From NCBI GenBank assembly GCA_964603945.1, contig CAZRWP010000003.1, positions 6,830-70,829 of the forward strand: 64,000 nucleotides of DNA. Reading direction: 5' to 3'. Source of the stretch: an uncultured Pseudomonadales bacterium. Its GTDB lineage: Bacteria; Patescibacteriota; Microgenomatia; UBA1400; UBA1396. The position numbers were made by a program, and so were the translations under genes. The notes under the pieces were generated by a model. The model made no database searches. It had not been told where the DNA came from and saw nothing but the letters and a program-made list of their open reading frames with translations. Of the stretch, positions 2,944 to 60,551 are shown one piece after another (the first letter of the stretch is position 1; the number at the start of each line of letters is the position of its first letter).

Positions 2944-3028
2944 AGGATCATCCTTGCGTTTAGTTTCCTTGAGAAGGATCATCCTAGGATGATCCTTCCA
3001 GGCAAGCGGAGGGGCAAGGATGATCCTT
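2944..3028. repeat. Family A palindromic intergenic repeat element, copy 1
   Basis: Element layout is AAGGATCATCCTTGC – 16-nt spacer – AAGGATCATCCTAGGATGATCCTTC – 16-nt spacer – GCAAGGATGATCCTT (copy 1 begins AGGAT). The three conserved modules are identical in the 4 copies (2944, 8729, 38571, 60466). Confidence 0.9.
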
Positions 3029-3043: not shown

Positions 3044-4165
3044 TTAAACTGCCACATCGGTCAATGAATAAGACACACCCTTGGTCACACCATGTTTGCG
3101 AATTAGGCCCTTATCCATCAGGTCTTTAAGGTCACGTAAAATGGTGTCGGTTGAAACCATCGGCAAAATCTCATTTAAATCAGATGAGGTGACACGACCT
3201 TGCTCTTGCAAGTACTCCATGATAATCAGCTGACGCTCGGTTAAAGCTACCTGCTGGCCAAGCTTCTTTTGCATGCGGAAATCCTGTGACAGTTTTAAAA
3301 CGGACTGCTTAATTCGGTCAAGCTCAATCGCCAAACCATAGGAAAAGTATTCCAACCAGTATGTCATGTCATTATTAGGACTTTCCTGAACTGACTTGAT
3401 CGCTAGGTAATAGTTTTCAATGTCGTTGTCAAAGTATTGCTCCAGAGAGAAAAACCGCTTAACGTCATAGCCTTCGGCATATAACAAGGCCAATGCCATA
3501 GCGCGGGACATGCGGCCATTTCCCTCAATAAACGGATGGATATTCACTAATTCATAATGCATAACCCCAGCTCGAATAATCTTATGCAAACTTAAAGAAC
3601 TAGAATTATTGATCCAGCCCAAAAATTCACTTATTTGCTGAGGAACCTCTTCCGGAGCCGGCGGTCGGTAGGCCACTTGACCACTTTCCACACTGCGAAC
3701 AACTACTCTTTGGGTGCGGTAAACGCCACATTGTTCAGGCGGGACAATTCGGTGCACCGAGATTGAGTGCAAGGTTTTCAGCATGTCTTCGGTGTAGACT
3801 GGCTGACCCTTGAGATTCTTACCCCAGTCATTAATCCAATCCAAAACCGCTCGGTAATTCAGCACTTCCTGAATGTCGCGCTCCTTACCAACTACACCAG
3901 CCTTGCTGGCTACTTCATCTGGGCTTGTCCCCTCAACTGAGAGGACTCTTTCTGCTTGTTCTTCGCTTAATTCATTACCTTCCAGGCGAGTGCCATGATA
4001 AACCGTTCTAACCTTGGCTTCTTGCTGAAATTTCATTTCCCAAGCTGGCACAATTGGCGAGTGACGAATTACTTCGCGAGAGGCCTCGATACTGGAAATG
4101 TATTGAAGAAGATTGTGTGATATCTGAAATTTTGGTTGATACATGGGTATATTTTCCTCCTGCAA
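3044..4165 (-). CDS. Fic family protein (AMPylation/phosphocholination domain) with C-terminal winged-helix region
   Basis: Fic motif HPFIEGNGRMSRA (HPFx[DE]GNGR); 373 aa. Confidence 0.85.
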   Translation of the reverse strand: MQEENIPMYQPKFQISHNLLQYISSIEASREVIRHSPIVPAWEMKFQQEAKVRTVYHGTRLEGNELSEEQAERVLSVEGTSPDEVASKAGVVGKERDIQEVLNYRAVLDWINDWGKNLKGQPVYTEDMLKTLHSISVHRIVPPEQCGVYRTQRVVVRSVESGQVAYRPPAPEEVPQQISEFLGWINNSSSLSLHKIIRAGVMHYELVNIHPFIEGNGRMSRAMALALLYAEGYDVKRFFSLEQYFDNDIENYYLAIKSVQESPNNDMTYWLEYFSYGLAIELDRIKQSVLKLSQDFRMQKKLGQQVALTERQLIIMEYLQEQGRVTSSDLNEILPMVSTDTILRDLKDLMDKGLIRKHGVTKGVSYSLTDVAV

Positions 4166-6665: not shown

Positions 6666-6851
6666 CATTGTTCGCCTCAATCTGGATATAACAGCTATGC
6701 CCAGATCACACCCTTGTCTTTTATTAGTTTTTAGACCCTAAACTTGCCCTAATTTAACCAAAAAAACTAACAAAAAATCTTGAAATATTAGAATTTTGAC
6801 AAGGGTTCAATCTGGAGATAATCACTATATCCAGATTGAGGCGAACTTGTT
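6666..6851. mobile_element. Family C MITE-like element, ~185 bp with ~48-bp imperfect terminal inverted repeats
   Basis: Left arm TTCGCCTCAATCTGGATATAACAGCTATGCCCAGATCACACCCTTGTC and right arm GACAAGGGTTCAATCTGGAGATAATCACTATATCCAGATTGAGGCGAA (ends perfect for 20 bp) flank an AT-rich ~80-bp core. Confidence 0.7.
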
Positions 6852-8635
6852 TAACGCTTAAGCACGGCCATGAAAGCCGATTGCGGAATCTGCACCTGTC
6901 CGATTTCTTTCATGCGCTGCTTGCCGGCCTTCTGCTTTTTGAGCAGTTTTTCGCGTCGGGTTTTGTCGCCACCATATAGCTTGGCGGTCACATCTTTACG
7001 GTAGGACTTAACGGTTTCCCGGGCGATAATCTTGCCACCGATGGCGGCTTGGATCGGGATCTCAAATTGCTGGCGGGGAATTGTTTCTTTGAGTCGCTTC
7101 GTGATGGCGCGTGCAATCCTATCAGCTTGTTCGCGGACCACGATTTGCGACAAAGCCTCTACTTCTTCGCCATGAACCATAATGTTTAATTTAACGGCGC
7201 TTACGGACTCGTAGCCGGTAATGACATATTCCAAAGAGGCAAAACCGGAGGAAACCGACTTCAGTTGATCATGGAAATTCACAATTAGCTCCATTAAGGG
7301 AATTTTGAATACGGCTTTTACGCGGGTGCCGACATCAGCAACTTCCTGCAAGCGGCCGCGATGATCTTCAACTAACTGCATAACCGTGCCCAAATACTGG
7401 CGAGGCGTAAAGATCGTGGCCTTAGTGATTGGCTCACGCAGTTCTAGAACCTGACTGGGATCCGGATATTCACTGGCATGATGAATTGTTTCAATTTCAT
7501 GATTGGTCAACTCTACTTCGTAAGGCACCGATGGCGCGGTTGCCACTAGATCTAAATCGAATTCTCGCTCCAGGCGCTCTTGAACAATTTCTGCATGCAA
7601 AACTCCTAAAAAGCCGACCCTCATGCCATTTCCCAGGGCAGTTGAGTGAGTACCGGTGAATTGTAAGGCCGCGTCATGCAGGCGCAGTTTGTTAATCGCT
7701 TCTTGAAGCAATATAAATTCATCACCGTTGGTTGGATACAAATCCAAATAGACCATTGGTTGAGGAATCTTGTAGCCCGGCAGTGGTTTTACCTTATCCG
7801 CGTTGGAAGCCTGGGTGATGGTGTCGCCAACCTGCACCATGGCGACATCCTTGAGTCCGGTAGCAATATAGCCAACTTCCCCAGCCTTGAGCGACTCAAC
7901 CGAACGGCGGTCTGGGCCAAAAAAACCAATTTCGGTGGGGGAAAATTTGTGATGATTGGCCAAGAGGGAGAGAGGCGCGCGCCGCAGTTCGCCTTCGATG
8001 ACCCGCACGTAAGCTATCACGCCCTGATGGACATCATAAAGCGAGGTGAAAACCAGGGCGCGCGCCGCCTGGTCCACCGGCTCTGGCGCCTCAGGAATTT
8101 TATCGACTATCACTTCAAGTAGGCGGTCAACATTGAGGCCTGACTTAGCTGACACCTCAACCATATCGCTTTCATCAAAGCCAAATGTCTCCATTAGTTC
8201 TAGCGTCACACTTTCCACGTCGGCGGCCGGCAGATCAATCTTGTTAACAACCGGAATAACTTTTAGGTTTAGCGCCTTAGCTTTTTCATAATTAGCCAGC
8301 GTTTGGGCTTGAATACCTTGAGTCGCATCAACCACCAACAAGACTCCCTCGGCGGCGGCCAGCGAACGCGACACTTCGTAACTAAAGTCAACATGTCCTG
8401 GTGTATCAATTAAATTTAACTGATATCGCTTATTTGTCCGAGGATCCTGCCAATTCATGCGAACCGGCGCCATCTTAATAGTGATGCCGCGCTCCTGTTC
8501 AATCGGATTTGAATCCATTAGGCGCTCGGAAAATTCACGTACGCCAATCGTGCTGGTCGCCTGCAACAGGCGATCCGTCAGCGTCGTTTTGCCATGATCA
8601 ATATGAGCGATAATCGAAAAGTTACGGATTGACAT
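6851..8635 (-). CDS. lepA: Elongation factor 4 (LepA)
   Basis: MSIRNFSIIAHIDHGKTTLTDRLL G-domain and 594-aa LepA layout. Confidence 0.95.
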   Translation of the reverse strand: MSIRNFSIIAHIDHGKTTLTDRLLQATSTIGVREFSERLMDSNPIEQERGITIKMAPVRMNWQDPRTNKRYQLNLIDTPGHVDFSYEVSRSLAAAEGVLLVVDATQGIQAQTLANYEKAKALNLKVIPVVNKIDLPAADVESVTLELMETFGFDESDMVEVSAKSGLNVDRLLEVIVDKIPEAPEPVDQAARALVFTSLYDVHQGVIAYVRVIEGELRRAPLSLLANHHKFSPTEIGFFGPDRRSVESLKAGEVGYIATGLKDVAMVQVGDTITQASNADKVKPLPGYKIPQPMVYLDLYPTNGDEFILLQEAINKLRLHDAALQFTGTHSTALGNGMRVGFLGVLHAEIVQERLEREFDLDLVATAPSVPYEVELTNHEIETIHHASEYPDPSQVLELREPITKATIFTPRQYLGTVMQLVEDHRGRLQEVADVGTRVKAVFKIPLMELIVNFHDQLKSVSSGFASLEYVITGYESVSAVKLNIMVHGEEVEALSQIVVREQADRIARAITKRLKETIPRQQFEIPIQAAIGGKIIARETVKSYRKDVTAKLYGGDKTRREKLLKKQKAGKQRMKEIGQVQIPQSAFMAVLKR

Positions 8636-8728: not shown

Positions 8729-8814
8729 AAGGATCATCCTTGCGCTTGGTTTCCTCAAGAAGGATCATCCTAGGATGATCCTTCCAGGCAAAAGGAGGGG
8801 CAAGGATGATCCTT
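8729..8814. repeat. Family A palindromic intergenic repeat element, copy 2
   Basis: Same three conserved modules as copy 1; lies between the divergent lepA and pilin-like genes. Confidence 0.9.
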
Positions 8815-8837: not shown

Positions 8838-9293
8838 ATGATACAATTTCCGCAGACTATGACTTTGTCAAAATTCATCCGCCGATCAACTTTAACCGCA
8901 ACTGCCTTAACTTCATTGCTAACTGCCTCGCCTGCTTGGGCGCAAGGCGCTTGGGAACAGGGTCGCTGTGTTACTACGGTTCAAATGGGCGAGAGTGCAA
9001 ATGCTGTAACAAAAGAAGTCGCCACCTTTAGAGGAATTGAGTGCTTGCTCGCCAATGTTTTAAATGTGGCCGTCACTTTTGTTGGTCTAGCCGCTTTTGT
9101 CATGATTATTTATGGTGCCTTTTTATATTTAACCAGCGGCGGCAGTAGCAAGGGCACTGAGGCCGGCAAGCAAGCCCTGACTTACGCCATCATTGGTATT
9201 GTCGTGGCTTTAATGGCCTTCTGGATACTCAATCTTATTGCTACTTTCACCGGTGTCAGCGGCATTTTAAACTTTAGTTTGTCTCTAGATTGA
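8838..9293 (+). CDS. VirB2/TrbC-like type IV secretion pilin-like small membrane protein (inferred)
   Basis: Sec-type signal peptide ending AWA|QG, then two hydrophobic helices separated by the short loop TSGGSSKGTEAGKQ; this topology and size are typical of T4SS pilins. No family-specific motif verified. Confidence 0.35.
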   Translation: MIQFPQTMTLSKFIRRSTLTATALTSLLTASPAWAQGAWEQGRCVTTVQMGESANAVTKEVATFRGIECLLANVLNVAVTFVGLAAFVMIIYGAFLYLTSGGSSKGTEAGKQALTYAIIGIVVALMAFWILNLIATFTGVSGILNFSLSLD

Positions 9294-9365
9294 GACTTAA
9301 ATTAATCAGCCATTGTCCACCTCGCTCTCTTGTGTCTCTCGAGATTTCACGTACAATAGTTTTAC

Positions 9366-11252
9366 ATGTACCGGTGGCTATTTAAGACCATTTCCTTTTT
9401 ATTGGCCGTCACTTGGCTGGCGACAAATTTGCTAACTCCGGTGGCAGTTTTGGCACAGGCTGATCCAGAAGACGATGAAACAACTGAAATCGGAGGCGCC
9501 ACCTTCAGTCGAGATGACTTTGAAGCCGCCATCAACTCACCTACTCCTAACCTGGCAAATACAACTGCTTATGTATTAACCACGATCAGTGTAATGTTGG
9601 TAAATTCAGTTAGCCCATCAAAGTTGGTGCAAAACCCAGATGGCGCAGCAATACCAGGAAGTACCCACTACGCCTCCTCCACTCCAAGAACTCTCGACAA
9701 CGCTCTTAATAATGGAGGTTTAATAGGCGGTGTCGCTTTTCTAACCGCCGAGTTGGTTCGCAATCCTCCAGCTTCTGGTTCAGAATACATCGCATACATC
9801 ATGCACGAATCTCCACTGATTCCGCAAACAGCTTACGCTCAGGGGTTTGGAGTTGGCTTTGGCGCTCTAAGTCCTATTCTTAGTACTTGGGCGGCTTTTA
9901 GAGATGTAGCTTACTTTTTATTAACTCTGATTTTCTTGACGATTGGTATTTTGATTATTTTCCGCAAAAAAGTCAGTGGCAATGTAGCCGTAACGGTGCA
10001 AAGTGCCCTCCCCCGTCTGATTATTACCTTAATCTTAATTACTTTTTCCTACGCTATTGCCGGCTTCATTGTCGACCTGATGTTCTGGGCTATTTATTTT
10101 GTGGTGATAATTTTTAGTAGTTTACTGAATGAACCAATAGATTTTAAAATCGCCAGCGACCCTACACTACGAGAATTTGCCCTAGACACCAATTTATTTA
10201 CCATTTTATTCCAATATGTAATTGCTGGAGGAGCCGGTAATGCGGCAAATGCTCTATCAACAATAGTAATGAAAGCTTTAACGGGCATTCCTTTCCTTGG
10301 TGGAGATCCAGGATCGTGGCTAGGAAGTATTCTTAGTTTTGGTTTAGACATTTTATTTACCCTAATAATTGGTGTCGCCATCCTAATTCAATCATTCCGA
10401 GTCTTCTTTCAGCTTCTAATGTCCTACGCTGGATTTGTAATTAATGTCGTACTGAGCCCATTTGTCCTTCTCCAAGGTGCAATCCCTGGCAAAGACCCCT
10501 TTATGAAGTGGTTAAAAAATCTAATTGCCGGCTTAGCTCCCTTTGTCGTGGTGGTGTTTATGCTATTTATGGCCTTCACCTTGTCTGGTAAAAACACTAA
10601 GCCTGGTGTTGGCTATGATGTAAACAACCCCAGCACAGCAGGCCTGCGACTACCACTTCTATTAACTGGTGATGTCTCAGGCAATGGCATCATGGGACTC
10701 TTAGCCATTGGCTTTATCATGCTATTACCAGAAGCCGTAAATATGACCAAGAAAGCTCTCGGCGCCTCCGGCGGACCGCTTGATGAGTTCAAAGACAAAG
10801 CTGTAGGGAACTTCAAGCAAGGTTGGGAAGGAAATAAGTACGTTCCAGGAGCTAAAACAGGTCTGCGCAATATGGCCGCTGGAGCTGGCGCCGGCATGGC
10901 GGGTGGTTTCGTAGCAGGCGACAAATTGTCTCAAGATCGTAGTCGACCGGTCAGGTGGGCTGCAAAAGGTGCCGGTGCTATACTTGGTACTGGCCTCGGC
11001 GGGGCATTCGGAGGAGCATACACAGCTGCCTCTCCGCCTTTAAAAGTGATTAATGAAAAGATTTTAAAACCAGTAACGCCAGTTGTTTCTCGCGTCAACA
11101 AAGAAGGCGTTAGGGTTAATGAGTTTATTGAGCAACAAAGAGCAAGAAAGCAGCTTGAGAGAGACGGCGAGCGACAGGAGGCTTCCACAAACAGAACCAG
11201 TAGTGGTGAGCCCGTTAATCCTTCACAGGGAGGTGGGGCTGTTGCTCCATAA
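9366..11252 (+). CDS. VirB6/TrbL-like polytopic membrane protein (inferred)
   Basis: 628 aa; N-terminal signal/TM, ~140-aa extracytoplasmic loop, 6 or more TM helices, and a Gly/Ala-rich hydrophilic C-terminal tail. AT-rich coding sequence. Confidence 0.35.
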   Translation: MYRWLFKTISFLLAVTWLATNLLTPVAVLAQADPEDDETTEIGGATFSRDDFEAAINSPTPNLANTTAYVLTTISVMLVNSVSPSKLVQNPDGAAIPGSTHYASSTPRTLDNALNNGGLIGGVAFLTAELVRNPPASGSEYIAYIMHESPLIPQTAYAQGFGVGFGALSPILSTWAAFRDVAYFLLTLIFLTIGILIIFRKKVSGNVAVTVQSALPRLIITLILITFSYAIAGFIVDLMFWAIYFVVIIFSSLLNEPIDFKIASDPTLREFALDTNLFTILFQYVIAGGAGNAANALSTIVMKALTGIPFLGGDPGSWLGSILSFGLDILFTLIIGVAILIQSFRVFFQLLMSYAGFVINVVLSPFVLLQGAIPGKDPFMKWLKNLIAGLAPFVVVVFMLFMAFTLSGKNTKPGVGYDVNNPSTAGLRLPLLLTGDVSGNGIMGLLAIGFIMLLPEAVNMTKKALGASGGPLDEFKDKAVGNFKQGWEGNKYVPGAKTGLRNMAAGAGAGMAGGFVAGDKLSQDRSRPVRWAAKGAGAILGTGLGGAFGGAYTAASPPLKVINEKILKPVTPVVSRVNKEGVRVNEFIEQQRARKQLERDGERQEASTNRTSSGEPVNPSQGGGAVAP

Positions 11253-11288: not shown

Positions 11289-14200
11289 TTATTTTTCTGA
11301 CTGAAACAAACCCATTAAGGTCTTTCCTGAATTAAATAGCTCTCCCCATGTGTATTTAACACCCATAAGCTTGAGAAGTTTCATAAATTGAGCCTTGGTA
11401 AATAAGTTTTGTCCCTCGATGTGTGGAAGTTCTTTCTCAACTGAGTCAATCCAGCCCTCTTTGTGAGCAACTCTCAATATTTTCTTAAATCCAGTCACCA
11501 GGGGACCCACCAGCACACCATCAAAATTACGATTACGATACATCTCTCGAATTTCAGCAGAAACTATAATACCAAGTAATAGATAGTCTTCTGGACTTAA
11601 CTTTTCGATAACATCCCCCTCATACGAAGCCATTGTCATCACTTGTGTAAATTTATGCTTAACTAACAAATCTTTTGGATTAACTATTGGACCACCATTT
11701 GGCGGAACAACTGTAAATACCATTTCTTTAACCCCATCATCTGCTACATGAAGAGCTGAAGAATTATACCTCTTGTCCCTCTTCATCTCATCTGGTATCC
11801 AATAAGCCAGATCTACTGGTTCCATTTGAATAAACAAGTGAGAGCGTACGAGTAGTTCTTTATAATCACCATCTCCAGATGAATTTGTAGCACCTGGTTT
11901 TTTCACAATTATTCTTACAAACTGGCCGGATTTCAAAGCTTCCTCTTTAGACACACCCGGATTAATTGGTTCTCCGGCTTCATCATACATCATCCAGTAA
12001 GTGTCAATTTTTCTGATCGTATCAATTACTTCAGCTGCAAATCGCCCATTAACTTTAGCCGGCTGATTCGTTTTAAAATCCAAAGATCCCAACTCAAGCA
12101 GATTTCCTGATGAAAAACCATTCATGCAGCGCTTAGCCAAGGCAAACATATGCTTCATATGTCCAAGCCATTGATAAGTAGCATCCGGAGGTAATTGATC
12201 AAATGGAATGTCAGCCCAACTACGAGCATGAGTAATATGATCTTTAAGAGTTCTTACTACACCATGCCTATTTTTTAGGACAAAATAGTCAAAAAAGGTT
12301 AAAAAGAAGGATTGCATTAAAATTAGAGACTCATTAATAGAACCAGTTTTTTCATCTCTTTCACCATTTAGATACTTCAAGGCGGCAAGAATCGGATTCA
12401 TCAAAATCTGCATTCTTTCAACACCTTCTGGAGATCCAAAGTTTTGTTTTTTTCCTTTTAGTCTCGCATCTTGAAAGTCTGCTTCTAATCCCAACTCACA
12501 CATCCACTCAGCAAAGTACATGGCAATTGTTGAAAACGGATACATTGCCTCCATTGCACTTGAGGATAGTGCTTCTGCGACTCCTTTCTTAATAGATGGA
12601 TCAAATTGATCATTAAAAGCTTTGGCTTCTTCATTGTTGAGACTTTCATTTTTAGCATCTAAGAATTGGTTTAAAGTACCCATAACGCTAGAACCATTTG
12701 GTTCCGATAATCCCCTTGACTCAATCTCAGTAATTTTCCTTTCCACTGACTCACGAATCTTCTCAGGCAATAATTGTGTAATAACTAAATTTCTTCTTGC
12801 CAAAGCCCTGGCAAAAGAATCTGATATCACGCTTGAAGTAGGTAAAACAGACCTCTTTAAACGCTTAGTTACCAATTGTTTAACACTATGAGTACCAAAC
12901 CTGAAACCCGGTCTTAAGCTCGAAGGAATACTAGGTTCAATTATTGTATATTGATCTGAATAAGGAATTGCCATGTCAGGTGGTAAGCCCTGATCATTAC
13001 GAATTTTTTGTTCACGCTTTTCTAGTTCATCAACACTGTTATATCCCCTCCCTCTAAGAAATACTTGTTGCAAAGCTATGCGTATTTGCTCGCCGATTGG
13101 CAAATTATCAGGTCCAAACTCTGACCCTTCTACCCAGCGATTTTGACTCTCAATATGGAGGGGCAATAAGAATCTATCATCAGCAAGTTCTGCCAACAAT
13201 TTCCAAACAATTGGATGAAACCATTTATTCTCTCTTGCGTCAGAAGAATAAAATTCTTCATACTGTTCAACAGTTTTTGACCCCATTGCCCTAGTACCAT
13301 CGGTTGCTAGAAGATCAAGCATCCACAAATACCCATTTAGCATTTCATCTTTAGCTATAAGTGCCGCTCCTCTAAATTCTGGGTCAACTTGCAAGTCATA
13401 TGCTTCAATAACTTGCTTAAGCGTCATTTGCTGAGATGGAATGGCGCTAGCATCGACAGTTTCTGTAAGTGCAAATGCTATACCTCCAATAGGGGGTATA
13501 ACACCTCTTTCAGGATCTCTCTGTCCAAAAGCCTTCTCCATTGCTAATGAAATAAGATGTCTATTAATAACTTCATACCGCTCAACCGGATCTTTTATTT
13601 CTAAAATATACTCAGCCCCATTTTGAACCAGAATATTTATAGCCGGATTGCTCATTTCGCGGTTTTTGCGCTCTTTTAACTTTGCCGCTTCTGCGTCTAA
13701 TTTATCTGCTGCTTTTTTAGCAGCTCTTTCCGCGCGCTTAGCAAGAAGATCTGTTCTACGTTCATCGTAAAGTGCAGCCTTAATTGCTTCTATATCATTG
13801 GTATGAGCGGCATTATTGATAATCTCTAACAGCTGACGTTCTAAATTTAACTTATCTACATCATCAATAATTTTCTGTAGTCTTACCTCCAAGTCTGAAT
13901 CTGTTATTCCAACGAGATCATTGGCTGCCCTCTGCTTTTCCAGGGACTTTTTTTCTGTGTCAAAGGTCAGTAGCTGATCATCAATCTCATTAATTCTTGA
14001 CTCTGTGAGAGAAATGATTATCCTAACTTGATTGAGTTGTTCAGCCTGATCAATTGTCCTGTTTTCTATGTCAACAATTGTTTGTCGCAATAGTTCATCA
14101 ATTTCCTTAAATTCAGGACTTAAATCTATGCTTCCTGCAGCTTTTCTCTTTGGTATGAACTTATCAGCCCACTCTTCAAATGATCTATTGACAAATAAAT

Positions 14201-14591
14201 CTTCATCGTTCATTAGTTCGAGCAACTGATTTAAAAGTTTTTCCTCAATCAACATTTTTTCTTCTTCATCCTTAGAAATTCCAGGAACCGCCTTTTCGAC
14301 CGAAATGTCTTTTATTCGCTGTCTAGTGGTTTCCCTGATTGTATTTAGCCTTACTAATTGATTATTTTCACTTAAAGCTCCTGACCTGGCCTGGTGAATT
14401 AATAATGCTAAATTATCAGTAATTATTCTAAAAGGCGTTCCTGCCTTCAAAATACCTGGGTGAAAATCAGGTGAAGCAATTCCACTTGCATCATAAGCAG
14501 CTTTATTCATTGCGATATCGCGCAGAAATTTAAATGAGGGGTTTATACTTTCAATCTGCGACATAATCAAGTTTATTTTAACATCAATCAA
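11289..14591 (-). CDS. Large (1100 aa) coiled-coil-rich hypothetical protein; no recognisable catalytic motif
   Basis: Long uninterrupted ORF 6 nt downstream of the 435-aa gene on the same strand; central charged heptad-like segments (RAERAAKKAADKLDAEAAKLKERK); no Walker A and no TM. Very AT-rich codon usage. Confidence 0.6.
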   Translation of the reverse strand: MIDVKINLIMSQIESINPSFKFLRDIAMNKAAYDASGIASPDFHPGILKAGTPFRIITDNLALLIHQARSGALSENNQLVRLNTIRETTRQRIKDISVEKAVPGISKDEEEKMLIEEKLLNQLLELMNDEDLFVNRSFEEWADKFIPKRKAAGSIDLSPEFKEIDELLRQTIVDIENRTIDQAEQLNQVRIIISLTESRINEIDDQLLTFDTEKKSLEKQRAANDLVGITDSDLEVRLQKIIDDVDKLNLERQLLEIINNAAHTNDIEAIKAALYDERRTDLLAKRAERAAKKAADKLDAEAAKLKERKNREMSNPAINILVQNGAEYILEIKDPVERYEVINRHLISLAMEKAFGQRDPERGVIPPIGGIAFALTETVDASAIPSQQMTLKQVIEAYDLQVDPEFRGAALIAKDEMLNGYLWMLDLLATDGTRAMGSKTVEQYEEFYSSDARENKWFHPIVWKLLAELADDRFLLPLHIESQNRWVEGSEFGPDNLPIGEQIRIALQQVFLRGRGYNSVDELEKREQKIRNDQGLPPDMAIPYSDQYTIIEPSIPSSLRPGFRFGTHSVKQLVTKRLKRSVLPTSSVISDSFARALARRNLVITQLLPEKIRESVERKITEIESRGLSEPNGSSVMGTLNQFLDAKNESLNNEEAKAFNDQFDPSIKKGVAEALSSSAMEAMYPFSTIAMYFAEWMCELGLEADFQDARLKGKKQNFGSPEGVERMQILMNPILAALKYLNGERDEKTGSINESLILMQSFFLTFFDYFVLKNRHGVVRTLKDHITHARSWADIPFDQLPPDATYQWLGHMKHMFALAKRCMNGFSSGNLLELGSLDFKTNQPAKVNGRFAAEVIDTIRKIDTYWMMYDEAGEPINPGVSKEEALKSGQFVRIIVKKPGATNSSGDGDYKELLVRSHLFIQMEPVDLAYWIPDEMKRDKRYNSSALHVADDGVKEMVFTVVPPNGGPIVNPKDLLVKHKFTQVMTMASYEGDVIEKLSPEDYLLLGIIVSAEIREMYRNRNFDGVLVGPLVTGFKKILRVAHKEGWIDSVEKELPHIEGQNLFTKAQFMKLLKLMGVKYTWGELFNSGKTLMGLFQSEK

Positions 14592-14597
14592 CCAACA

Positions 14598-15905
14598 CTA
14601 ATCTTCTTTCTTAAAAGTAACTCTCGCGGACTGTTCCAAAAGATACTGAATTACTTCAGCAGACAAATTTATTGATTTTTTGTCAGGCAAATCCGATTTT
14701 TTGCCTTCAAGATTTTTTTTGATTGCATAAGCAACTCTTTCCTTAATGTCCTCAATAAGTTTGACTTTTTCTTCAGGATCCTCTGCCTTTTTAGGAGCGG
14801 ATAGAAGATCTCGTACTTCAGTCTGCAAGTTGATCTCTTCAATTTTCTTTTCTTCTTTAAACAAATAAAGGTAAAACTTTTTTTTATCTTCTTCACTTTC
14901 CATTGAGGCTTTCAAGAATTCCATTGTTGTGTCTTCCAAATCATTTTTGGCTTCAACTCCATCTCTATATAACCTGTCTCCGTAGCCAAATCCTGATTTA
15001 TCAACTGCAAATATTAATGAAATAAAATCACTTACACCGGGAATTCCCTCCGACCAGTCATCAACGCCTTTTTGCATATCTTTAAATGAAGAAAAAAATG
15101 AGGCTTGCTTTTCACTATCCCATTTTTCTGACAACCCCTGTCGAGCCACACTATCCTCAATCTGCAGATAAACTTCTAGCAAATGAGATGTCGTCTCATA
15201 CTTAGATAAAAACCAGGCTGAGTGCTCTGAAAACAATTTTTTATCATTTTGAAGCTCCTCCCAAGAAAGTTGATCGTCTTGAGAGCCTGTTAAAAACAGT
15301 CTTTCGAGCTCGGCATGATCTTGAAAGCTTGTTAAAAAAGCCAAAGTATCTAAAGTTTGGTTTTTAAATTTTTCAACCTCAATATCCTCGGTTTCAAGCA
15401 GCATTGTTTTTGTTTGTTCTTGAATAATGGAAGAAATGCGATATTTTAATCTTCGAATGTTGTCTATTTTTTTATTGACATCCTCAGTTTTTCCTGAATC
15501 ATCACTTTTTTCAACCTTTTGAAGATCGCTTTTAAATCTACTCTCAACTTTGTCTAAAAGCTGAGTAAATTCTGCTAGAGGGGGATTATCGCCGTCAAAG
15601 TGCTCTTTTAATAAGAGATTAACACGCCTTTCCAGTTTAAATTCTTCATCATCTCTTTTTATTCCCTCAACTAATTGCTCAATATTAAAATTCCCTACAA
15701 ATTGCTCTGAATTTTCTTCCAAATCCTGGTTCTGAGGAAGATTGTTTTCATTTTCAGACCCAGTCGCTAAGTTGTCAGCACCTTTATCATTTCCATCATT
15801 CTGATTTTCAGGCTGAACCCGAGTTTCCTCTGCTTTTGCTCTAATGTCATCCATCGACATATTTTCACCAGCTATTAAAATCGAAGATTGATTGACTTCT
15901 GCCAT
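14598..15905 (-). CDS. Acidic, low-complexity/coiled-coil hypothetical protein (435 aa), first gene of a two-gene operon divergent from dnaA
   Basis: The ORF starts 217 bp from the dnaA start on the opposite strand; the N-terminal 70 aa are Asn/Glu/Asp/Gln-rich; AT-rich. Confidence 0.55.
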   Translation of the reverse strand: MAEVNQSSILIAGENMSMDDIRAKAEETRVQPENQNDGNDKGADNLATGSENENNLPQNQDLEENSEQFVGNFNIEQLVEGIKRDDEEFKLERRVNLLLKEHFDGDNPPLAEFTQLLDKVESRFKSDLQKVEKSDDSGKTEDVNKKIDNIRRLKYRISSIIQEQTKTMLLETEDIEVEKFKNQTLDTLAFLTSFQDHAELERLFLTGSQDDQLSWEELQNDKKLFSEHSAWFLSKYETTSHLLEVYLQIEDSVARQGLSEKWDSEKQASFFSSFKDMQKGVDDWSEGIPGVSDFISLIFAVDKSGFGYGDRLYRDGVEAKNDLEDTTMEFLKASMESEEDKKKFYLYLFKEEKKIEEINLQTEVRDLLSAPKKAEDPEEKVKLIEDIKERVAYAIKKNLEGKKSDLPDKKSINLSAEVIQYLLEQSARVTFKKED

Positions 15906-38570: not shown

Positions 38571-38656
38571 AAGGATCATCCTTGCCGTTAGTTTCCTCAA
38601 GAAGGATCATCCTAGGATGATCCTTCCAGGCAAGCGGATGGGCAAGGATGATCCTT
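38571..38656. repeat. Family A palindromic intergenic repeat element, copy 3
   Basis: Same three conserved modules as copy 1; lies upstream of nrdR. Confidence 0.9.
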
Positions 38657-50299: not shown

Positions 50300-51799
<1,500 letters not shown>

Positions 51800-53233: not shown

Positions 53234-53307
53234 GAGAGTATAGCTCAGTTGGTTAGAGCGCAGTCCTGATAAGACTGAGGCCCCTGGTTCGAGTCCAGGT
53301 ACTCTCA
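53234..53307 (+). tRNA. tRNA-Ile (anticodon GAT)
   Basis: Acceptor GAGAGTA/TACTCTC, D-arm AGCTCAGTTGGTTAGAGC, anticodon loop CTGATAA, T-arm GGTTCGAGTCC; no encoded CCA. Confidence 0.9.
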
Positions 53308-53527
53308 CATCCTTCTTTCCCCTTTTGCTCCACAAGGAAGGCTAAAGCCTTGGCTTTCGTCGCAAAAGGCAAAAGAAGTTTCTAGGTTTATTTCTGAGTT
53401 GGTCTAGAGTCCAATTGGCTAGAATGCTAAAAACATTTCTGCTTTTTTGTATGTCTCATAAAATATGGTATTACTAAATTATTAAAGCGTAGCGGCAATC
53501 TCCCCTGATATAATAACCTTCTTAGCG

Positions 53528-53603
53528 GGCCCATAGCTCAGTTGGCTAGAGCGCTTCATTTGCAATGAAGAGGTCAGGAGTTCGAGTCTCCTTGGGTCCA
53601 CCA
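53528..53603 (+). tRNA. tRNA-Ala (anticodon TGC) with encoded CCA
   Basis: Acceptor GGGCCCA/TGGGTCC with the G3:U70 Ala identity pair, anticodon loop TTTGCAA, T-arm GAGTTCGAGTCTC, 3' CCA. Confidence 0.9.
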
Positions 53604-58007: not shown

Positions 58008-58309
58008 AAGTTTGCAGATGTACCAATAGCATTATATCTGAACAAAATTGTTTTTGTGATTTATTAGTGGTTATTTGCTGATTGTATCTGTCTCATTTAT
58101 TTGCTAACTTTTAATTTGCTGTGGAACATAGTGAAATTCTATGACTGTGCCGCAACGGTGATTCCAAACACGGAAAGTCCGATCTTCAGCAAAAGAGAAA
58201 TCTTGACGAGCATCGAGGAATTATTGTCGGCATATATCTGAAAAATTAGCCGAAAATAATTTAAACAAACGACCTTTATTTTGGACAAACCAAAAATAGG
58301 TCAACCGAT

Positions 58310-58331
58310 GCTCCCTTAAGGGAGCTTTTTT
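58310..58331 (+). terminator. Orphan intrinsic terminator on the + strand (GCTCCC-TTAA-GGGAGC followed by TTTTTTGTTT)
   Basis: Perfect 6-bp GC-rich stem, 4-nt loop and T-tract; no + strand CDS upstream in the 300-bp gap. Confidence 0.55.
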
Positions 58332-58395
58332 GTTTACCACAGCCGATAATTGTTTTGGCTTGAGGGTGTTTTCCAAAAAGTCAGGAGGAATTAAT

Positions 58396-59181
58396 ATGGC
58401 TGGACTTGAAAGTCGAGGTGCCATGAACATGAGGCGAAGGCCAACTGAAATGGCCAAGAGCATTGGAAGTCAGCCGTCGGAGATAAGAAAGAGTTGGCAA
58501 GCTTTAAGAGGGCAAGGTTTGGGGCCGGAATCGGTGGTGCAAGACTTTGAGTCGATAGGCTCAGTTGGAAATTTTGAAAGTCTGCAAAGTCTGATTCAGC
58601 TTGAGCCAGCTTTGGCGACCGGCTTAAATCAATTGCTGGGTCAATTAATTGGCAATGTAATTGAGCAAACAACGGCCAGCGAGTTAATTAGTGCTTTTGG
58701 TGTTCCGGAGTCTTTATTGGCGATGCCAGTATTTTTAGAGTTGCAGGTGATGGAAGTGGAGTCACAAAGAGCGGTGCGTCAGTCAGCTGAAATAGTCAGA
58801 TATCAATGGCAGAAGATGGTGAACCAGATAATTGCTCAGCTAAAGTTATTTCTGGCGGAAAGAATAAACTCACTTGAACAAAAAAGGCAGGCGCATCAGC
58901 ATGCTTGGCGAGACTCGCTCATGGCGGCAGGAAACACTCAGGAATTAAATGGCACGATGGCCACTTTGGATTCTCGTTTTATGTCCGAAATTTCTCAGAT
59001 AGATCAGCAAATTAAGCAGTTGAGGCAGACACTGGGTAATATTGAACAGAAAGTCCAAAAGTATGAATCCACTTGGCTGGCGCCGACGGTACTTAGGGCG
59101 AGCGAGCAGAGGGTTGGGCCGACAATTGTTTTAAACTCGGCGGAAAGGCTTGGAGCGGGCGGAGAAAGTTTAGCTGTCTAG
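58396..59181 (+). CDS. hypothetical protein (coiled-coil-rich)
   Basis: Start chosen at the ATG preceded by a strong SD AGGAGG (58383–58388) rather than the ORF-track start at 58330. Confidence 0.45.
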   Translation: MAGLESRGAMNMRRRPTEMAKSIGSQPSEIRKSWQALRGQGLGPESVVQDFESIGSVGNFESLQSLIQLEPALATGLNQLLGQLIGNVIEQTTASELISAFGVPESLLAMPVFLELQVMEVESQRAVRQSAEIVRYQWQKMVNQIIAQLKLFLAERINSLEQKRQAHQHAWRDSLMAAGNTQELNGTMATLDSRFMSEISQIDQQIKQLRQTLGNIEQKVQKYESTWLAPTVLRASEQRVGPTIVLNSAERLGAGGESLAV

Positions 59182-60465: not shown

Positions 60466-60551
60466 AAGGATCATCCTTGCCCCTTGTCTAGTCTGGAAGG
60501 ATCATCCTAGGATGATCCTTCTCGAGGAAAATAAAGGCAAGGATGATCCTT
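60466..60551. repeat. Family A palindromic intergenic repeat element, copy 4 (inverted orientation relative to copies 1–3)
   Basis: The modules are identical, and the spacers match copies 1–3 only after reverse complementing. Confidence 0.9.

Follow-up and report, generated by a model that had tools for sequence, protein, structure and literature searches.

What can a single pilin gene and a large membrane-protein gene be doing side by side, next to a replication origin, in a region where no secretion ATPase is encoded? The question is raised by a 64,000-nucleotide stretch of chromosome (hereafter the window; assembly GCA_964603945.1, contig CAZRWP010000003.1, positions 6,830 to 70,829) from a Woesebacteria-like member of the Microgenomatia, within the Patescibacteria or candidate phyla radiation (CPR). 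An original prediction, made from the sequence alone, read the two genes as an orphan VirB2/TrbC-like pilin and VirB6/TrbL-like membrane protein of a type IV secretion system (T4SS), possibly forming a minimal and novel module. Both open reading frames (ORFs) are present where it placed them, with the topology it described. They lie on the same strand, separated by 72 nt:

8838-9293, plus strand: VirB2-like T4SS pilin gene, 151 residues, assigned by PF18895 and topology
9366-11252, plus strand: polytopic membrane protein gene, 628 residues, a candidate divergent VirB6 equivalent by fold and gene context

We consider it reasonably probable that both genes encode envelope subunits of the Patescibacteria T4SS/pilus apparatus, the core of which is encoded elsewhere. 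This apparatus is of monoderm type, derived from the mating-pair formation (MPF) class MPF-FATA and unusual in having VirB2-like pilins. The system itself has already been described for Patescibacteria, and a 2025 FEMS review regards it as a recognized, if unusual, pilin-bearing T4SS of monoderms (PMC12857230). What is new here is modest: a divergent VirB6-like family of Microgenomatia and Paceibacteria, a conserved core pilin, an arrangement in which a single pilin is detached from the rest, and a hypervariable slot beside it.

The pilin and its polytopic neighbour

Sequence places the small protein in the T4SS_pilin family: it passes Pfam PF18895 with 32.2 bits against a gathering threshold of 26.6 (E 1.2e-7, profile positions 5-70 of 71), which upholds the earlier call of a T4SS-type pilin, and the same family is on record for its orthologue in a relative (L090). 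The N-terminus is a Sec-type signal ending in SPAWA and followed by QG, with cleavage after AWA at about residue 35. A short extracellular segment carries a conserved Cys pair (C44 and C69), and hydropathy places two hydrophobic helices at about residues 70-98 and 110-141, linked by the short, basic loop TSGGSSKGTEAGKQ, which is predicted to be cytoplasmic. An alternative start (ATG at 8859) leads to an identical mature protein. A signal peptide, a two-helix membrane hairpin and a short cytoplasmic loop are also characteristic of TrbC/VirB2 (PF04956) and of the pilin-like proteins of Mycoplasma integrative and conjugative elements (NF045849, the Mbov_0395 family), but the window pilin falls below the cut-offs of both, with 15.6 bits against 27.9 (E 0.018) for the former and 21 bits against 40 (E 2e-4) for the latter.

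The 628-residue protein begins with an N-terminal signal or anchor (residues 9-30), followed by an extracytoplasmic region of ~140 residues that ends in the invariant motif AQG.G.GF..L.P.L..W. Between residues 175 and 460 there are six to seven hydrophobic helices, among them a conserved TFSYAIAG helix, in keeping with the at least five transmembrane helices of polytopic VirB6/TrbL proteins. The cytoplasmic tail is Gly/Ala-rich and modelled with low confidence as disordered (~495-580), with a terminal helix. There are 270 database homologues, and all of their taxon-bearing source names are CPR (such as Woesebacteria, Pacebacteria and Microgenomates).

An AlphaFold2 model of this protein, based on a 63-sequence alignment, has a mean predicted local distance difference test score (pLDDT) of 73.8, and most of the transmembrane core (residues 170-470) exceeds 90. 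In a Foldseek comparison with 350,542 PDB chains, three entries of R388 TrwI/VirB6 occupied ranks 1-7 and 9 (E 2.7e-3 to 0.3, probability 1.00 to 0.54, TM-score below 0.5), and the first unrelated match had a probability of 0.25. TrwI (MPF-T; PDB 7O3V, 8RT9, 8RTD; PF04610) is likewise a polytopic inner-membrane protein and, by analogy with it, the window protein would be expected to act as an assembly platform for VirB2 pilins and as a substrate channel. Unlike TrwI, with which it shares 14-18 % identity, it is 628 rather than 342 residues long, has no VirB5 partner, and adds the ~140-residue extracytoplasmic domain and a disordered Gly/Ala-rich tail of ~150 residues. It can also be compared with PrgH of pCF10 and Orf15 of Tn916, ConG and TcpH, which are polytopic components of monoderm T4SSs near PrgI/VirB3 and a CD1110-type VirB4; Orf15/ConG-type proteins are similarly “extended” (700-800 residues). 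In contrast to the window pair, these MPF-FATA systems have no pilins.

The 628-residue protein resembles VirB6 in predicted fold and gene context, and in no sequence test. The earlier VirB6/TrbL call finds partial support on the first two counts (Foldseek ranks 1-7; PrgI/VirB3, TrsD and CD1110-family VirB4 as neighbours in relatives) and fails in the profile searches that were proposed along with it, where there is no Pfam or NCBIfam match and hhalign stays below 1 %. The protein also goes undetected by the VirB6/PrgH hidden Markov models (HMMs) that work in Saccharimonadia. VirB6 homologues have been reported as “scarce” in Microgenomatia, “suggesting extreme sequence divergence” (PMC12102498), and we regard the 628-residue family as a strong candidate for the VirB6 counterpart that escapes censuses based on HMMs. 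From fold, topology, context and elimination, we infer that the protein is probably the polytopic VirB6-type subunit of the system.

The locus in relatives and in the clade of the window

Where are these two families found in other genomes? A scan of one genome per species located relatives of the 628-residue family at 511 places, 80 of which were fetched with 10-kb flanks. ORFs were called and clustered in 83 loci, and HMMs were rebuilt for each cluster. The order of genes is given below by typical position, counted in called ORFs from the 628-residue family gene (0); the ranges of positions overlap.

Far upstream, at the head of the pilin array: extracytoplasmic function (ECF) sigma factor, 30 loci
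Upstream: pilin array, 74 of 83 loci (366 genes)
Usually -2: secreted protein of ~1080 residues with a faint glycoside-hydrolase signal, 65 loci
Usually -1, opposite strand: degenerate DHH/NrnA-like protein of ~300 residues, 61 loci
0: 628-residue family gene, all 83 loci
+1, opposite strand: cytoplasmic protein of 600-1560 residues, 67 of 73 loci
Most often +2: transmembrane protein of ~1200 residues, 29-35 loci (cluster c13 with Peptidase_M23, cluster c8 without a Pfam match)
+3: bitopic protein of ~330 residues, 22 loci
+4: PrgI/VirB3, 23 loci (PF12666, 27.7 bits against 27)
+5: TrsD-like protein, 12 loci (NF041427, E 1.4e-6)
+6: VirB4 of the CD1110 family, 4 loci (NF045971, 390.9 bits against 325)

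PrgI, TrsD and VirB4 all fall within six to eight genes downstream of the 628-residue family gene, with VirB4 seen solely in the four loci with a long enough flank. Outside the clade of the window, 35 of the 51 loci with at least 9.5 kb of downstream sequence carry at least one T4SS marker. In the recurrent ~1200-residue multi-pass proteins at +2 the C-terminal domain resembles a peptidase or hydrolase, and the recurrent families of the loci showed no further VirB6 candidate. The 628-residue family is chromosomal in every genome-derived locus fetched. In relatives, both families of the window share their locus with PrgI, TrsD and VirB4, and in most Microgenomatia and Paceibacteria genomes a single locus unites them with these genes and an M23 cell-wall hydrolase. 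The 628-residue family is thus one of the standard parts of this locus in CPR.

The arrays that precede the membrane-protein gene hold up to ten pilin paralogues per locus; among the 74 pilin-bearing loci, 39 have at least six pilins and 31 only one or two. The window pilin is the orthologue of one particular member, the last, Cys-pair pilin of the array, nearest to the 628-residue family gene, in 69 of 72 loci. It scores ~100 bits against this paralogue versus 20-40 bits against the others, and its identity to the last-array pilin of distant loci is 43-59 %, compared with 17-25 % to other paralogues. The extracellular Cys pair is confined to this group of orthologues, and the orthologue is conserved better than the membrane protein itself. 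One Cys-pair pilin is thus the conserved core pilin and the rest of the array is variable.

Public annotation does not always record this gene. In L001, a close relative, the pilin gene (9365-9904, plus strand) was missed and a spurious ORF called on the opposite strand (9533-10000, minus strand), and comparable errors affect L088 and L089. Automated censuses therefore likely under-count the conserved pilin.

The clade of the window (the window itself, L001, L006-L011 and L088-L090) has its own gene order: ligase, Fic, Carb_kinase, RecF, LepA, one pilin, the 628-residue family gene, variable proteins and DnaA. The comparison of synteny in relatives proposed with the original prediction finds the pair between lepA and the variable genes or dnaA throughout the clade. 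The variable genes comprise one of ~900-1180 residues (reverse strand), usually a second of ~410-495 residues (reverse strand), and then a 615-residue protein before DnaA, the last of which is missing from the window. The clade keeps only the Cys-pair pilin and the VirB6-like gene, relocated between lepA and dnaA, an arrangement that suggests a reshuffled and shortened remnant of the T4SS locus of CPR. The pair can therefore be detached genomically from the ATPase core.

Three other families of the relatives' loci (L002-L085), conserved there but lacking annotation, namely the ~1080-residue secreted protein, the DHH/NrnA-like protein and the ECF sigma factor, are all absent from the window.

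The window pair is like the Patescibacteria T4SS in its monoderm type, its Sec-exported PF18895 pilin, its chromosomal position near dnaA/oriC, the lack of a relaxase, and the loci that its relatives share with PrgI/VirB3, TrsD, CD1110-type VirB4 and an M23 hydrolase. It is unlike that system in having one pilin and no array (a CPR pilin profile finds no second pilin-like ORF in the window), and in standing apart from VirB3, TrsD, VirB4 and the hydrolase, none of which is encoded in the 64 kb.

Where is the rest of the apparatus?

The original prediction had stated that no VirB4/VirD4-type ATPase lies within 10 kb of the pair. The statement is correct and applies to the window in its entirety: when all ORFs of at least 85 residues were scanned for Walker A motifs, RecF, LepA and DnaA alone were returned, and the relatives' VirB4, TrsD, PrgI and M23 HMMs gave zero matches among its six-frame ORFs. 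Elsewhere in the CPR the apparatus is common. VirB4 was found in 2,417 of 3,035 CPR assemblies and forms a clade nested in MPF-FATA; pilin arrays are abundant especially in Microgenomatia, T4SS genes often lie near dnaA, and T4SS components are more dispersed in Microgenomatia (Quinonero-Coronel et al., 2025, PMC12102498). The supplement of the same study lists VirB4 as “Yes” for GCA_002772695.1, a genome outside the clade of the window (PMC12102498). VirB4 and the rest of the apparatus are most probably encoded outside the 64-kb window, because VirB4 is present in ~80 % of CPR and VirB2-type pili depend on VirB4.

Several results weigh against assigning the pair to this apparatus. The presence of an ATPase in the clade is assumed, and no VirB4, PrgI, TrsD, M23 transmembrane protein or other T4SS gene is found in the window. 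The 3.6 kb past its left edge hold pentose-phosphate and sugar-kinase genes only, with no T4SS gene. In the clade's seven genome-collection loci the ~1080-residue secreted protein, the DHH-like protein, M23, PrgI, TrsD and VirB4 are all absent within 10 kb on either side, and the called genes of three further relatives' contigs include no T4SS core gene. At the level of sequence, neither the 628-residue protein nor any of 63 aligned relatives matches Pfam or NCBIfam (E up to 1), and the family profile finds nothing among all PDB sequences. With hhalign the family gave less than 1 % against TrwI alone, a probability of 0.56 % against a 34-member TrwI/VirB6 (PF04610) profile, and 0.45 % and 0.79 % against the single sequences of pCF10 PrgH and Tn916 Orf15, respectively. 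The pilin profile matched no solved VirB2/TraA pilin among PDB sequences, and hhalign gave no link to R388 TrwL (probability 0.2 %).

Could the pair then work alone, as a minimal pilus or filament module that has lost the T4SS core and forms an ATPase-independent filament or membrane complex, possibly with its two variable neighbours? The absence of any T4SS ATPase or core gene from the 64 kb and from within 10 kb on either side in clade relatives would fit, as would the clade-wide stability of the order lepA, pilin, 628-residue gene, variable proteins, dnaA, which implies that the pair is maintained as a unit, and the roughly 20 % of CPR assemblies that have no detectable VirB4 (PMC12102498). 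However, the extraction and polymerization of VirB2-type pilins are VirB4-dependent in all characterized T4SSs (PMC12102498), VirB4 occurs in about 80 % of CPR assemblies with T4SS parts typically dispersed in Microgenomatia, and the part inspected is about 6 % of a roughly 1-Mb genome. The “minimal, possibly novel” module of the original prediction is also disfavoured by the finding that most lineages carry these two families within the known Patescibacteria T4SS locus (PMC12102498, PMC10633639), and we regard it as very unlikely. It is somewhat less unlikely that the 628-residue protein is something other than a VirB6 homologue, a CPR-specific polytopic protein of different function that merely shares its loci with pilins and T4SS genes; it might serve pilins as a chaperone or insertase, transport lipids or cell-wall material, or form a channel that takes up metabolites of the host. 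Every sequence and profile comparison with VirB6-type families is negative, the TM-score of the structural match is low, and the protein is about twice the length of TrwI or PrgH and has a sizeable extracytoplasmic domain and an extensive disordered tail. Against this, VirB6 chains are the only high-probability Foldseek matches among the PDB chains searched, the recurrent families of the loci offer no other VirB6 candidate, and VirB6 proteins “extended” by additional hydrophilic domains have been described (PMC12857230). No transporter family matches the protein, so the assignment to an unrelated transporter that was named as refuting the original prediction has not materialized, and a transporter identity is rejected.

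Mis-annotation of both genes, the small one as a holin or competence (type IV) pilin and the large one as a phage tail tape-measure protein, is hardly credible. Small proteins with two transmembrane helices do look like class II holins, and NCBI lists one homologue (P0046) as “phage tail tape measure protein”, a name that most likely stems from the Gly-rich tail. The small protein, however, has a cleavable Sec signal and the PF18895 domain and no class-III leader of type IV pilins; there are no phage genes nearby, the locus being core chromosome beside oriC; and the large protein is polytopic and chromosomal throughout the genome-derived loci, with relatives at the 511 places of the scan. Holin, type IV pilin and tape-measure readings are effectively refuted by PF18895, topology and this chromosomal distribution.

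If the pair does belong to the Patescibacteria T4SS, how might it work? The pilin would be exported by Sec, its signal peptide removed, and the mature protein kept in the membrane as a hairpin of two helices whose short basic loop faces the cytoplasm. The 628-residue protein may oligomerize into a VirB6-like membrane platform or channel that also passes substrates. A distally encoded VirB4, with PrgI and TrsD, would extract pilins at this platform and polymerize them through the wall. By analogy with Southlakia epibionticum, the resulting structure would probably mediate contact or exchange with host cells and not conjugation. That organism cannot grow epibiotically without the T4SS encoded by SEML1_0006-0019, pilins included (Wang et al., 2023, PMC10633639; also PMC12857230), and this system has neither a relaxase nor a coupling protein (PMC10633639).

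Variable neighbours, surroundings and implications

Two ORFs converge on the pair from downstream, followed by dnaA. Together with the upstream flank, the immediate surroundings are:

6851-8635, upstream of the pilin gene: lepA (TIGR01393, 784 bits)
8730-8813, strand not assigned: palindromic intergenic element of about 84-88 nt, directly 5' of the pilin gene
11289-14591, minus strand (convergent): 1100-residue cytoplasmic protein with a coiled-coil-rich N-terminal third, at +1
14598-15905, minus strand: 435-residue cytoplasmic protein, acidic and Lys/Glu-rich, AT-rich gene, at +2

The flanks are those of the original prediction, with lepA upstream and AT-rich genes downstream (35-40 % GC compared with about 45 %). 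The link that it drew between the pair and the large downstream proteins also holds as one of position, since the slot is conserved across the loci of relatives. Neither the 1100-residue nor the 435-residue protein has a transmembrane segment, signal peptide or Walker A motif, or any Pfam or NCBIfam match. At +1, an opposite-strand protein of at least 600 residues is present in 67 of 73 loci; these proteins form at least seven families, between which phmmer and hhalign find no links. An exhaustive search of 1.84 billion proteins returned 21 representative relatives of the 1100-residue protein, with similarity mostly limited to the last third to 40 % of its length, from about residue 665. A word-index search of the same protein found only itself, its AlphaFold2 model (pLDDT 69) gave coiled-coil noise and no fold match in Foldseek against the PDB, and pairwise and profile comparisons with same-position proteins elsewhere found no similarity outside its own clade. 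The 435-residue protein has no phmmer match, even in same-clade loci, and no representative beyond its own species. An opposite-strand ORF of 410-495 residues fills the +2 slot in five of the seven clade relatives' loci, and the 270-residue ORFs of L009 and L011 are possibly fragments.

Conserved position combined with extreme sequence turnover at +1 and +2 is the most unusual feature of the region. The pattern would fit fast-evolving host-interaction proteins, T4SS cargo for example. A bolder proposal takes the proteins in these slots for cargo or effectors that the Patescibacteria T4SS of each lineage has for its own, or for host-facing specificity factors, with the pair kept beside them as a cassette of export gate plus variable cargo; we consider this unlikely. 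If it were true, substrates of the essential CPR T4SS would become directly testable.

The wider setting is a stretch of Patescibacteria chromosome. Beyond the two downstream ORFs, dnaA, dnaN and yidC lie at the GC-skew minimum, and the locus therefore sits beside oriC. The palindromic element occurs in four copies in the window (2944-3027, 8730-8813, 38572-38655 and 60467-60550) with identical internal spacing, and is thus not confined to the pilin locus. Each copy consists of four self-complementary AAGGAT[C/G]ATCCTT boxes at offsets 0, 31, 42 and 73, a motif with 16 matches in the window against 0.06 expected. The element forms a long hairpin (-51.2 kcal/mol, z = -7) and matches no Rfam family. 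It resembles repetitive extragenic palindromic or miniature inverted-repeat transposable elements, and the copy before the pilin gene may serve as the lepA terminator, an insulator, or a regulatory site for the pair.

Other features of the window are of interest in their own right. A Fic/DOC-domain protein fused to a DeoR-type helix-turn-helix (3044-4165, minus strand) is kept clade-wide in the block ligase, Fic, Carb_kinase, RecF, LepA. Some 1.4 kb beyond the 16S rRNA gene (50300-51798) lie tRNA-Ile and tRNA-Ala (53234-53603), and no 23S rRNA was detected in the 10 kb that are left of the window, suggesting that the rRNA operon is split or unlinked. An AdoCbl-II (cobalamin) riboswitch aptamer (58107-58196, 47 bits against a gathering threshold of 36.5) lies 5' of an ORF at 58330-59181 and is noteworthy for a reduced CPR genome. 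Among L006-L085, records of metagenome-assembled genomes that bear CPR genes are often labelled “uncultured Pseudomonadales bacterium”, evidently an artefact, and single CPR-type records carry the labels TM6, Methylococcaceae or Limisphaerales; such taxonomy labels are unreliable.

What does the pair add to the biology of these organisms? No T4SS before that of Patescibacteria had been shown to be indispensable for the growth of its owner. For the missing VirB6 subunit of this system there is now a concrete candidate family, whose conserved place is between the array of pilins and the core of PrgI, TrsD and VirB4. The category of the system is unchanged, and structural and genetic work is supplied with specific targets.

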